Part shown: positions 11,230 to 43,400 of the stretch, piece after piece
Layout: each line of letters begins with the position of its first letter
Position numbering within the stretch: position 1 is the stretch's first letter
Assembly: GCA_030265395.1 (NCBI GenBank)
Contig: JARFYF010000094.1
Span: forward strand, 63,512,842-63,576,841
Direction: 5' to 3'
Source of the DNA: Rhina ancylostomus
Lineage: Eukaryota
Length of the DNA: 64,000 nucleotides
Notes under the pieces: generated by a model
Told to the model about the DNA's origin: nothing
The model's database searches: none
The model's input: only the letters and a program-made list of their open reading frames with translations
Program-made: the position numbers and the translations under genes

Positions 11230-13260
11230 ACAGTAGGTGAGTTGAGGACAGGTAATACTCTGGAGGTGGTAATAAGCATACAATGGCATGGGTGTGTGTT
11301 CCAAAAATCACCTTGCTATCTTGCAAATAGTCTAGTTTAAGGCACTGGCCAGGCAGAGGGATGGATTTGGTGGAATGACATTTGTGGCGGGGATTAAGAA
11401 AATGGATTTGGTCCTCACAGTGTGTAGTCATCAAGACAGATTGTTTCTTAAGGCGGCCGACAATTTGGAGACAGTGGAGGAGTCAGGAGAGCTGGTTACA
11501 AGACAGAACAGTACAGGTACAGAAACTGATGCTGTGTTTTTGGATGATGCTGTCGAAGGCAGGATGTGGATGAGTCGCAGTAGAAGGATGTGTTTATGTA
11601 CATGGGGGACACTGAAGGTGATGGCAAAGGAACGGGAAGAGAATTATTGCTGGGGATTCACTGGGTATGACAGGTTAGATAGGAATGGAAAGAGACTTTC
11701 CATGCAACTCACCAATGTGAACAGGCATTGGAGAACGATGGTGTGGCCAGTTATGTCACAGATTTTAGGCAAGTTGAGAAGGAACAAGAGAGATGGATTA
11801 GCTTTGCCCTGGTCATATGAGACGTCATTAGTGACTTGGATAAGTACCATATTGGTTGTATGGCATTGGCAGAAACTTGATTGGAGGCACTCAAGGAACG
11901 ATTGACAAGGAAATGGGAGGATGCAACTTTTTCAAAGGCATTCATTCTTTTTACGGACTTTGGAGTGGTACGAGAAATTGGAGATGGGGCAATATTTTGT
12001 CAGAAAGCAGGTCAGAGATGGTTTGTTTTTTTTGTGTGGAGAATGGTCAGGCTGAGAAGCACCAATATCAGCTAATATGTTCAGCAGGGAGGAACATTGC
12101 ATGATCAACAGTTTGGTAAGAGTAGGATTGAGGGAAAAGGAGTTGGATCCCGTGGAAGGGAGTTGGGCTGGAAGGTCATGAATGATGAGAGTTTAGGGTT
12201 AGGTGAGGGGGACTCTCAGGAGTTTGGCCCTGTGGGTTGGAAAAGGAAGAGCAGTGGAAGAGTCTGCAGAATGGATNNNNNNNNNNNNNNNNNNNNNNNN
12301 NNNNNNNNNNNNNNNNNNNNNNNNNNNNNNNNNNNNNNNNNNNNNNNNNNNNNNNNNNNNNATTTGTTGTTTTGCAGCAGTAGTACAGTGCAGACACATA
12401 AAATAATGATAAATTACAAAAATAAATAGTGTTTCTTTAAAAAAAAGAGGAATAATGAGGTAGTGTTCATGGACCGTTCAGAAATGTGATGGTGGAGGGG
12501 AAGAAGCTGTTACTGAATCACTGAGTGTGGGTCTTCAGGCTCCCTGTATCTCATCCCTGATGGTAGTAATGAGAAGAGGGCATCTCCCAGATGGTGAGGG
12601 TCCTTAATGATAGACACTTCCTTCTTGACGCACCGCCTCTTGAACATGTTCTCGATGTTGGGGAGGGTTGTTTCCGTGATGGACGACTGAGTCTGTAACC
12701 CTCTGCAGCCTCTTGCAATCCAGTGTATTGGAGACTCCCTACCAGGCAGAATGCAACCAACCAGAATGCTCTCCATGATGCATCTGTAGAAATTTGTAAA
12801 AGTCTTTGGTGAATCTCCTAATGGAGTAGAGCTGCTGACGTGCCTTCTTCATGATTGCATTAATGTGTTGGGCCCAGGTTAGATCCTCCGAGATGTTGAT
12901 GCCCAGGAACTTGAAGCTGTTCACCCTTTCCACTGCTGACCCTTTAATGAAGATTGGTGTGTGTTCTCCCGACTTCCCCTTCCTGAAGACCTCAGTCATA
13001 GTGATGAACACCCATGAGTTCTCCACACTTTTACTTAAAAGCGAAGGTGGTGGAATAAGGGAGAACCCTTCAAGAAAATGGTTTCTAGCAGGGAGAGAAG
13101 TTTGGCATCATCTGTTATTTTTGGTTGATCCTGGAATAATGAATGGGTTTGGTATTGAGAGAAGGGCTGTACTCAGAGGGTGTGGGTGGGTAGGCCTGGT
13201 GGTGGAGAGGGGATTGAGCAGTTAAGATCAGAGAGAAGAATAGTTTTAGTGAAAACCAGG
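11230..13260 (-). mobile_element. Decayed L2 LINE RT region, interrupted at about 12277-13000 by a gap and a Rex/Babar insertion
   Basis: Minus-strand ORF 11644..11850 VLIQVTND...SLLFLLNLPKICDITGHTIVLQCL is a degenerate L2 RT motif (LxxVTND...LLDLSAAFDTVDH). An HYSRI motif lies near 13130. Confidence 0.7.
12362..12990 (-). mobile_element. Rex1/Babar LINE 3' end
   Basis: GEHTPIFIKGSAVERVNSFKFLGINISEDLTWAQHINAIMKKARQQLY and IIKDPHHLGDALFSLLPSGMRYR are Rex/Babar RT C-terminal motifs. Confidence 0.9.
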
Positions 13261-39439: not shown

Positions 39440-39716
39440 AGAATCAGAATTATGTTTATTATCACTGACTTATATGACGAGAAATTTGTTGTTCTGCGGC
39501 AGCAGTAGGCTGCAAAGACATGAAAATTATTATAAATTACAAAATAAATAAGTAGTGCAAAACAAAGAATAACGAGGTAGTGTTCTTAGGTTCATAGGCC
39601 GTTCAAAATTCTGATGGCAGAGGGGAAGAAGCTGTTCCTGAAACATTGAGTGTGGGTCTTCAGGCTCCTGCAGCTCCTCCCCAATCGTAGTAATGTGAAG
39701 AGGGCATGTCCTGGAT
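39440..39716 (-). mobile_element. Rex/Babar LINE 3' end
   Basis: Homologous to 12362-12600 and to the reverse complement of 25760-26045. Confidence 0.85.
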
Positions 39717-40309
39717 GTTTTTTCAGCATGAAGGAATACAAAAAGATCAACATTTTTTCCCTCCATCATTGGAATTATTACATGGGAAATCTTCCATGGA
39801 AATTAAGCATGAGCTAGTTTGGGCCAGTTGGCTGGTGGTCCTGTGTAACACAATTTAGGACAAAGGCCTGGAGCACCTCCCTCCAATTGGGCAGAGCTTC
39901 AAACCAATGGAACCTGAATTGAGAATGTTGCAGAAGTTGACCCAGAATTTCCATTTGAGACAATATTGAGCCTGCATTTTGAAAAGGTGATGAAAAGTCT
40001 CCACCCTAAAACTTTCACCCTGTTTCTCTCTTCACAAATGCTGCTGATACATTTGAGTGTTTCCAGCTTTCCCTTTTTTGGTGTTGATATTGTCAATTTT
40101 TTCTTCCAAGTTTCACTAACCAGTGTCTCTCCATGGCCTCTAGTAAGTGAATGTTCTCTTTTAGCTGTTAAATTTGGCAGGCTGTTGTTCTCCACTGCAG
40201 AAGGTGCTGAGAAGATTGCAAACCATTGGCACCTAATACCATTCAATATCTCAGTCCATTGTGTATGCTCACACAGGACGTTCTAAAATAACGCAGAGAA
40301 TGTTGTAAG

Positions 40310-40420
40310 CTCATAAATTCTAATGTATTTCTTTTTCTCTTTTTCTTCTCGGTCCCTCTTGATGGTTGCTGATCTTCCTCAATGTTATATGCTGTTTTCA
40401 TCTTCATCTTTCAGGTAAGC
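40310..40420 (+). promoter_or_regulatory. Candidate recursive splice site (3' splice site abutting a 5' splice site), AG 40413-40414 / GT 40415-40416
   Basis: ttttcatcttcatctttcAG|GTAAGC. No AG between 40310 and 40412. Branch-like TTCTAAT at 40318-40324 and GCTGAT at 40368-40373. Long pyrimidine tract at 40328-40360. Confidence 0.6.
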
Positions 40421-43400
40421 TTGACTCAAGTCTGATGCAGAAAAAGTCACACTATATATGAACAAAATATCATTATTTTAAAGCCTCAGATGGCATCTTA
40501 ACATAATTGTGCTTAAATGGCACAAGATATCCTTGCACGAAGACCCAAATATCTGTCTACCCTCCACTCCCAAGCTCCTAAATGCTTCCACATGAGACAT
40601 AGTTCTTCAGTGGTGGTTTTCTTCCAGTATCTCATTCATCTGGCTTTTACCCTGGCTCAGATGGCGAGAGCAGGCCAACTATCTAAAAATATGGATAGTC
40701 ATTGGCACAACAGAGCAGTTCACTCACTTTCACACAAGCATGTTCCAGTAAGGGACCCTCGTTGATTTGTCCCTCCCTGACATATAAGCACTGTGACATG
40801 CTACTGCTGCCAATTAACTCTACAATGATTGAACATGACATTGATCTTACGTGTGTTGTCCAGAAATGATAACTACATTCTATGTCAATGGCTTCAGTTT
40901 TTAACATGGTCAATTTTAGCTCAAAAATATATTTGAACTTGTATGGGGAAAGCTACCTTAACAAAAACATTTACGTGGTTATTTTGGGTATGTGTTGTCT
41001 GCATCTCATGTTTAATGTATTTTTAATGTGTTTTCAAGAATTTACATTCACACTTAAAGCTTTTGTGTATTTTCATTGCATGCCGTAGGAGGAACATATT
41101 AAAATATATTTTGTGATTTTCCTAAATGCATTGCAAGCTTAAAGGTTGAAACAATCTGGTTCTGGTTGCAATGGCTGATTTTATTTTAGGAAATCAGAAT
41201 TTACCATTTTAATGAAGAGCGGGAGAGAAAGGGATATCAATTGTGTTGAGAAACCTATCTATGGTGTCACGTCTGTGTCTTTAACGAGATGATATCCTTG
41301 ATCATTTTTCATTATTATGCATTCAATCTTGTGTGCTAAAACCGTAAGGGAAGAAACTTGCCTTTGGATGCAGTTGGCAGTCTCGTCTTTTTTACCTGGA
41401 GTTCTCTTTTCTGTCCAAACTCATTTGTATATTGTTTATCATAGAATCTGTCTGCAAATATTACAAGGGTGTTGTGTTTTAAAATGTAATGCTTTCTAAA
41501 AAAAACAAAATAGTTGTAGAAATTCTTTGATTATACAGTATTTAAGAATGATAATTTTGGAAGTTTGGCTAATACACTGGAAATAGATTTTATCACCAAA
41601 AAAGATAATTTTATTATCTGTGCATCAATCCACCATCTTTGAGTAACCAAGTGTTAAGCGTTTGAAAATTACACAAATGCAGAATTATTTGCTACCTACA
41701 TTTGTGTACAATTGTCAGTTTCTGAATTAAGACAAAATAGTCCTCAGAAGCTTTGAGAAAGAGTCTCTTGCTTTTTTTCAATTTGGAAAGGCCTGTGAAC
41801 AAGTGCAATCAGTGATAATTCCACTTGAGCTTGGAGTGAGGCCAGTTGTGTGGGCAGTGCCACCTTTCGTTCATTTTATTTTGGACAAGTTCTTACAATT
41901 GTAGGAGCTTAATTTCAAATTCCCTAATTGAAATCATTAAATTTTCATGTTCAAAATTCTGCAAACTTTGGGCAAATTTCAGATGAACTGTGAGGAAAAT
42001 TTCAGGGTAAGCTCTCCTTCTTTCTATAAAAATCTCTTTTCACAACATATTGGTACTCCAGCACTTCATTGTTCACCGGTATCAATCATGCCATCCAAAG
42101 GGTCATCTACACAGTCAGGAGTTAAGATGTTCTCGGCTGGTAATGCTAAACATGCACTTGGCATCCAAAATTCAGTTTCACTGACTACAATGCCTGATCA
42201 CTATTATTATTGACTTTATTGCTACTAACTGAGGGCATATTTCATAGCAATGATTTCTTTCAGAAGCTGGAGATCCTCTTTACAGAGAACAAACTAACCA
42301 GCAAATACAAAAAGAATCTAGAAAGAGTTCTTCATCTCCTTTGTCGAAACAACTAAACCGTAATTATATAATGTTTTGACAGCAGCCTACTGTTTCATCC
42401 ACTGCTGCATCTCATCCAGGAATGCCAGCATTAGACGTCTGCTGCTTTATTGCCATTTCCACTTATCCTTTCCACCCTGATGGCTGTCATTCTTGTCTCT
42501 TATCTATCCTGTTGGTGATTGCAGCTCCCTCTGGCTCTGTATTCATTTCGGATAAACTTTCACCTTTCCACCTTTGGATCTATTTGCGTTCTGAAAAGGT
42601 CTGCATTTTAAATGTCTTACCTGTCTTTTCAAATTTGCTTAAACCTGCGATGCATTTCCACCACTTCCTGTGTTTCCTTTAGATTTGCTGCAGTTACATT
42701 TTTTTTCTCTTAATTTCTGAAGAAGTAGTTGTTACCCAAGAGATTGTAGATTTTTCTCATCACTTTTGTTTTATGCGATGGAAGGACTTTCTGAGGACAA
42801 TATGGCAACTTCAATGCCTGAGTGAAGGGGAGGACAGAAAGGAAACCAGAAATTGGCTTTCATTGTAGATATAATTGCATGTTAAAAAGAAAATAATTAT
42901 ATACATGAAATTGTCAAGAAAGCAAGTGTCACAATGATGAAAACATATTGCCACTTGTGCTCTGAAGCAAACAATAAATTCACATTCCATTTCTACCCAA
43001 GGAGTGCATGCAGAACAGTGTTTGGCTTCATAGATATACCTGTGTTGTAGTAGTTACAGCTTTTGCGGCTGCATGTAGAGGTCATTCAGGATGCCCTGTA
43101 TTGCCTTAACTTCAGGTTGTGATGTTAAGTAGTAATCAAGTTAACAAGTAGTAATCTCTCTGTATGATCAGTGTGGCCTCACTTTGAGTGTGAAGTGGCA
43201 TTCTAGCCAGGCAGTGGGAAGTCACTTCTGAGAAAGGTGTAGAGTCAGGGGATGGGACTGATCAGAATGCTATGAGAGCCAGCATAAACTCAATGGGCTG
43301 AATGGCATTCCAAGTCAAAAAGNNNNNNNNNNNNNNNNNNNNNNNNNNNNNNNNNNNNNNNNNNNNNNNNNNNNNNNNNNNNNNNNNNNNNNNNNNNNNN

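Follow-up and report, generated by a model that had tools for sequence, protein, structure and literature searches.

A candidate recursive splice site in the 266-kb HS6ST1 intron of the ray-like fish Rhina ancylostomus

The window analyzed here is a stretch of 64,000 nucleotides on contig JARFYF010000094.1 of Rhina ancylostomus (hereafter C94; window span C94:63,512,842-63,576,841). The whole of it (window positions 1 to 64000, + strand) lies in the long intron between both coding exons of HS6ST1, on the combined evidence of tblastn, Pfam, homolog names, tree placement, and strand skew. Stingray and skate HS6ST1 queries (tblastn) place the coding part of exon 1, comprising residues 1 to 173, at C94:63,441,581 to approximately 63,442,101 and the start of exon 2 at C94:63,708,400, both outside the window. 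Exon 1 is 111 kb upstream of the motif discussed below (C94:63,553,255|6), and a Pfam profile search returned a PF03567 (Sulfotransfer_2) match 155 kb downstream of it, both on the + strand. A + strand host intron had been proposed from a sequence-only reading of this DNA, and HS6ST1 exons 1 and 2 indeed flank the site in that orientation. At the protein level, exon 2 shares 97% identity with the HS6ST1 proteins of Hemitrygon akajei and Amblyraja radiata, 88% with Callorhinchus entries, and 68 to 69% with bird HS6ST3. It sides with HS6ST1 (support, 100/99) in an 18-row tree in which HS6ST2 was not represented. HS6ST3 was rejected as host on the identity values (68% versus 97%) and on this placement, and PDE4 was rejected with 7 of 7 PF18100 matches located on scaffolds other than C94.

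The HS6ST1 intron measures approximately 266.3 kb, or 266,298 nt if exon 1 stops at the first base of an adjoining run of 292 N, within which the last base and the donor of exon 1 fall. In total, approximately 25.7 kb of the intron is N. The site divides it into 111,154 and 155,144 nt and is situated on the sense strand, deep in an intron of >50 kb that directly follows the first coding exon. The T>A skew amounts to 0.047 in one segment of the intron and 0.036 in the other (0.011 upstream and 0.048 downstream), consistent with + strand transcription through the intron. We also observe a CpG island at exon 1, and a further, nonrepeat CpG island 35 kb past exon 2 (C94:63,743,600-63,744,600), which is probably the promoter of a neighboring gene. 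Within the window, two frames on the - strand (138 to 731 and 12739 to 13107) resemble degenerate LINE reverse-transcriptase fragments, judged by inspection.

No HS6ST2 or HS6ST3 locus was recovered from the genome, with Pfam profile and protein searches returning only HS6ST1, and an HS6ST3-like protein is present in Callorhinchus. Assembly gaps, limits of the search, or true loss could account for the missing loci. Five of the eight inspected HS6ST3-type proteins are fragments whose first residues lie at or slightly before R|xFYYIT (R|NFYYIT), matching the start of exon 2; read from protein entries rather than gene models, this suggests that the vertebrate HS6ST paralogs may share the intron position.

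The motif itself has the form of a fused 3' and 5' splice site, with a pyrimidine tract followed by YAG|GTRAG at 40414|40415. The junction reads ...tgctgttttcatcttcatctttcAG|GTAAGC, with AG at 40413 to 40414 and GT from 40415 (CAG|GTAAGC). Upstream of it extends an AG-free zone of 103 nt (40310 to 40412, + strand) with 75% C+T, the preceding AG being at 40308 to 40309; 26 of 15,558 intron AGs have an equally pyrimidine-rich 100-nt stretch upstream. The zone contains a distal branch-point candidate, TTCTAAT (40318 to 40324, + strand; A at 40323, 91 nt upstream of the AG), a distal pyrimidine tract of 33 nt with one GG inside (40328 to 40360, + strand), and a proximal branch-point candidate, CTGAT (40369 to 40373, + strand; A at 40372, 42 nt upstream). 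Branch points usually lie 10 to 60 nt away, as given in the available part of PMC10156609, and A 40372 falls inside that range; the distal TTCTAAT is thus not required. The proximal tract with its CAG (40395 to 40414, + strand) is the predicted recursive 3' splice site, with an acceptor score of 8.0 compared with 5.3 for the true exon 2 acceptor and a rank of 50 among 15,953 intron AGs. It carries TT at positions -5/-6. GTAAGC (40415 to 40420, + strand) is the intron half of the predicted rebuilt 5' splice site, based on sequence and scoring. The sequence-only reading had reported the AG|GT junction, the AG-free zone, TTCTAAT, and the 33-nt tract, and all are present as described. Its statement that the DNA is repeat free holds for the site itself, but a short remnant of a high-copy interspersed repeat is found at approximately 39988 to 40067. 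The site is single copy (one genomic match for a 271-bp stretch, and one match for a 25-mer allowing up to two mismatches), and a repeat origin was rejected. No Rfam match was found in 39700 to 41500.

Sites were ranked with splice scores from generic splice matrices, not with MaxEntScan. The candidate ranks first among 940 sense-strand AG|GT sites in the HS6ST1 intron, with a score of 11.8. The runner-up (C94:63,617,864, + strand; score, 10.7) combines a very strong acceptor with a weak donor, GTTAGG, and is possibly a cryptic exon start or a minor recursive site. Among 2,264 local control sites from the antisense strand and the flanks, the best reached 8.4. Both strands of a further 600 kb, taken from two PDE4 genes, contained 4,421 sites, 1 of which reached 11.75, so that in the pooled controls 1 of 6,685 sites scores as high as the candidate. 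This single site (score, 12.0) is antisense, has a weak donor, and looks repeat derived: it lies in a look-alike copy of the repeat at 39988 to 40067, carrying a pyrimidine tract and CAG|GT, and is the only control site to outscore the candidate. This repeat may thus act as a seed of cryptic acceptors.

One of the two PDE4 regions, 400 kb upstream in a PDE4D-like gene, was intended as a positive control. There, the best sense site scored 9.5 and none reached 10 or more, with the 12.0 site on the antisense strand; the score is consequently not validated as a classifier. We take this gene to be PDE4D-like from its residues and from its poorer match to PDE4B than that of the gene on scaffold C63. 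Two of its sense-strand sites are candidates for counterparts of the mammalian PDE4D recursive sites, namely, C52:49,548,914 (- strand; score, 9.5), a T-rich acceptor followed by GTAAGT approximately 200 kb upstream of a UCR exon, and C52:49,511,709 (- strand; score, 7.9). In the second control, 200 kb in PDE4B, the best sense score was 8.4, at C63:38,785,042 (- strand), where CAG|GTAAGT follows a 49-nt AG-free zone; PDE4B does not appear in the mouse RS list as given in the available part of PMC8797253.

Taken singly, the features of the motif are unremarkable, and only their combination stands out. AGGTAAG occurs 8 times in the window versus 7.2 expected, a loose recursive splice (RS) pattern occurs 6 times versus 5.7 expected, and 12 AG-free zones on the + strand of the window are longer than 103 nt. 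Markov simulations of the host intron, of order 3 and order 5 (48 Mb each), yield 0.085 to 0.090 sites of equal total score per intron, falling to 0.03 to 0.05 when both halves have to be strong and to 0 to 0.015 when an AG-free zone of at least 60 nt is added. Extrapolated to both strands of the whole genome, the simulations give approximately 1,600 chance sites of equal score, so the motif alone is not convincing.

The family in which the motif resides has been linked to recursive splicing before. A study of 1.15 billion reads of cortex nuclear RNA identified 20 mouse RS sites, two of them in Hs6st3 and Hs6st2, according to the available part of PMC8797253. Its Table S4 gives the Hs6st3 site at chr14:119,537,650 (202 junction reads; rebuilt donor, CAG|GTAAGT) and the Hs6st2 site at chrX:51,473,339 (26 junction reads; rebuilt donor, CAG|GTAAGG). 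The downstream donors of these two sites are weak (MaxEnt, -1.4 and -5.5, respectively), and the RS-exons have 0 downstream-junction reads (PMC8797253, same part). Mouse Hs6st1 is not among the 20 sites listed in the S1/S4 tables of that study. HS6ST3 also figures among the eight human RS genes given in the accessible section of a review, which credits Duff 2015 (PMC8758631). In the fly, FBgn0038755 is Hs6st (PMC5303223, in the part available), and a supplement of PMC6110457 lists three high-confidence ratchet points in its 68-kb intron (3R:15,764,178-15,831,956). A search of mostly open-access literature found recursive splicing described neither for HS6ST1 nor for any cartilaginous fish. The strings HS6ST1/2/3 and AUTS2 are absent from the PMC10156609 supplements, as far as available; since HS6ST3 is missing there too, this carries no information.

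The candidate resembles mammalian HS6ST3/Hs6st2 in several respects: it belongs to the same gene family, occupies a long 5' intron whose upstream exon terminates in AG (presumed here), joins a pyrimidine tract to AG|GTAAG with a predicted strong rebuilt donor and a weak downstream donor, and splits the intron into two pieces of >100 kb each. Unlike those sites, it lies in the paralog HS6ST1 of a ray-like fish and is a candidate known from sequence alone, and its donor is GTAAGC where mouse Hs6st3 and Hs6st2 have GTAAGT and GTAAGG; mouse Cadm2 site 2 has GTAAGC as well. More broadly, vertebrate hosts of RS-sites or RS-exons include CADM1, CADM2, ANK3, OPCML, NCAM1, PDE4D, ROBO2, and HS6ST3, as well as mouse Lsamp, Ntm, Cdh4, Kcnip1, and Hs6st2, and the locus shares with them YAG|GTAAG, a first-type intron of >51 kb, and a predicted premature stop on RS-exon retention. 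HS6ST1 here spans approximately 268 kb between its coding ends, and the mouse hosts are described as >294 kb and brain specific in the available part of PMC8797253. By its sequence and position, the site is thus a probable member of the vertebrate RS-sites. As in Drosophila Hs6st, a fused AG|GT lies in a long intron of the same gene family with TT at -5/-6, which is found in 196 of 197 fly sites (10.1101/006163, in its available part and for flies only); unlike the fly gene, with three sites approximately 8 to 20 kb apart, HS6ST1 has one candidate site here.

Each splicing step set out here is a prediction. As the gene is transcribed, the pyrimidine tract with the CAG ending at 40414 would serve as a 3' splice site, whose recognition probably involves exon definition across a weak cryptic RS-exon, and exon 1 would be joined to 40415. 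Exon 1 ends in phase 2: it supplies two bases of a conserved Arg codon, A (seen) and G (presumed), and exon 2 supplies the final G. The exon 1 end (GA seen, final G presumed) together with GTAAGC would rebuild a strong 5' splice site, GAG|GTAAGC, of approximately 6.7 bits, a value that depends on the generic matrices and on a last exon 1 base hidden in the N run. Within 500 nt downstream, the only positively scoring donor is CCA|GTAAGG at 40748 (+333), with 2.7 bits, which would delimit a possible cryptic RS-exon of 333 nt (40415 to 40747, + strand; boundary speculative). At 6.7 versus 2.7 bits, the rebuilt donor should win over the weak downstream donor and splice to exon 2, the RS-exon being skipped, in line with the model of exon definition and donor competition described in the available part of PMC5126111. 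The intron would thereby come out as a 111-kb and a 155-kb piece, with no trace left in the mature mRNA. If the RS-exon were retained, the frame entered from exon 1 reads Arg and then stop (in-frame TAA, 40416 to 40418), so that a TAA one codon past the junction would cut the enzyme short and probably expose the transcript to decay; retention of mammalian RS-exons likewise gives a premature stop (PMC5126111, same part).

For conservation, seven runs from four organisms, none recorded as RNA, cover part of 40100 to 40800. We compared four of the seven; these are assembled contigs without joints, from relatives diverged by approximately 2 to 7%. In organism B, 10 of 566 letters differ across the site, compared with 39 of 1,388 farther downstream. 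The count for organism D is 171 letter differences plus 81 gap letters over approximately 2,370, with deletions of 1 nt near 40337 (in one of its two runs) and 10 nt at 40504. Differences shared by B and D were counted among the best 40 of 188 difference rows, on the assumption that these include all shared rows. Within these best 40 rows, B and D share 26 differences in 1,857 comparable bases and 0 in 323 covered bp around the site. This is the longest stretch free of shared differences among the same 40 of 188 rows (permutation P = 0.044; analytic P = 0.06), the next longest being a gap of 254 bp at a featureless place. At the same time, organism D keeps approximately 3 of 65 words versus approximately 6 expected under a flat 7% divergence, and an ultraconserved block at the site is therefore absent. 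Related species thus lend the site weak support, and relatives this close do not bear on the gnathostome-ancestor age put forward in the sequence-only reading.

What the motif does can be read in several ways, and by itself it is not decisive. Established are the motif itself, the gene and strand that host it, its place in the intron, its rank, and the reading frame; we consider it likely that this is a recursive splice site that would let the 266-kb HS6ST1 intron leave in two pieces, as suggested by its sequence and setting. The earlier proposal of a good recursive-site candidate in a long vertebrate intron is borne out to the extent that a fused motif does lie inside such an intron. The published sites in mouse Hs6st3 and Hs6st2 and in fly Hs6st raise the odds of a real site: with a prior near one half that this HS6ST1 intron carries one, which is our own estimate, and a chance rate of approximately 0.05 to 0.09, a real site is the likelier reading. 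A motif arisen by chance, with no splicing role and conspicuous because it was picked as best looking, is an unlikely explanation. The simulated rate of equal-scoring sites per intron and the one higher-scoring control speak for it, as do the chance-level frequency of AG-free zones and AGGTAAG taken alone, the marginal conservation, the rarity of recursive splicing (<0.06% of long introns in mouse brain, in the available part of PMC8797253), and the fact that the sequence-only reading had selected on the motif itself. Against a chance origin stand its place on the sense strand of a family with published RS sites in three other members, the much lower simulated rate once both strong halves and the long pyrimidine zone are required together, and the run across the site free of substitutions shared by B and D, again among the best 40 of 188 difference rows.

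Two further readings would make the motif part of an exon, and we regard both as improbable. GTAAGC might be the ordinary donor of a stop-containing poison exon, e.g., 40201 to 40414 (214 nt), whose end may or may not also see secondary recursive use. In favor of this reading, CAG|GTAAGC makes a strong donor, a cryptic acceptor at 40181 to 40200 (+ strand; score, 5.3) is on par with the true exon 2 acceptor (5.25), and weaker acceptors end at 40110, 40143, and 40276, with an early stop from each. Yet approximately 250 intron AGs score as high as the acceptor at 40200, and the final 100 nt of such an exon would be 74% pyrimidine, free of AG, and furnished with branch-like motifs, which is the anatomy of an acceptor; moreover, three shared substitutions fall at 40184 to 40279 and none at 40280 to 40530, among the best 40 of 188 difference rows. 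Less probable still is that a genuine exon, alternative or terminal, starts at 40415 with the AG as its acceptor and is retained in some transcripts to reduce enzyme output. The strong acceptor, the possible donor at +333, and the immediate in-frame stop are compatible with such an exon, whereas the rebuilt donor far exceeds the downstream one and the mouse Hs6st2 and Hs6st3 RS-exons lack downstream-junction reads in the part of PMC8797253 cited above. As for the suggestion that the site is the ortholog of an AUTS2 recursive site and the window an auts2-family intron, its probability is close to nil. The flanking exons found on C94 are HS6ST1 exons 1 and 2, which refutes it barring gross misassembly of C94. 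Of 22 candidates scored, 8 matched the Auts2 domain, and every one of these lies on scaffold C54 or C46, none on C94. AUTS2 is likewise absent from the eight human RS genes named in the available section of the review (PMC8758631) and from the 20 mouse sites in the S1/S4 tables available from PMC8797253, and no relevant paper on recursive splicing in AUTS2 was found in mostly open-access literature. The genome holds two genes of the family comprising AUTS2, FBRSL1, and FBRS, at C54:23.08-23.10 Mb (+ strand) and C46:35.68-35.69 Mb (- strand).

To our knowledge, well-supported vertebrate recursive sites number only a few dozen, nearly all of them mammalian. The mechanism of recursive splicing is already known; what would be new here are the HS6ST1 paralog and the cartilaginous fish host. 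Whether recursive sites are necessary is still debated, as noted in the available part of 10.1101/2025.08.14.666599.

HS6ST1, HS6ST2, and HS6ST3 are ohnologs from the vertebrate genome duplications; a search of mostly open-access literature returned no paper on their ohnology. The human HS6ST1 intron is much shorter than the one described here. Homology with the HS6ST2 and HS6ST3 sites would place the origin of the candidate before the vertebrate whole-genome duplications. It is conceivable, although we hold it doubtful, that recursive splicing of the long HS6ST intron has such an early origin, the site being kept by HS6ST2 and HS6ST3 in mammals and by HS6ST1 in cartilaginous fishes and lost from mammalian HS6ST1 as its intron shrank. 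If this were true, with fly Hs6st also recursive, the family would constitute a natural experiment on intron length versus site gain and loss over >500 million years. An HS6ST1 site in a cartilaginous fish would complete the three-paralog HS6ST set, and such a set would offer a direct test of whether ancient sites are lost with shrinking introns or new ones arise with intron growth.
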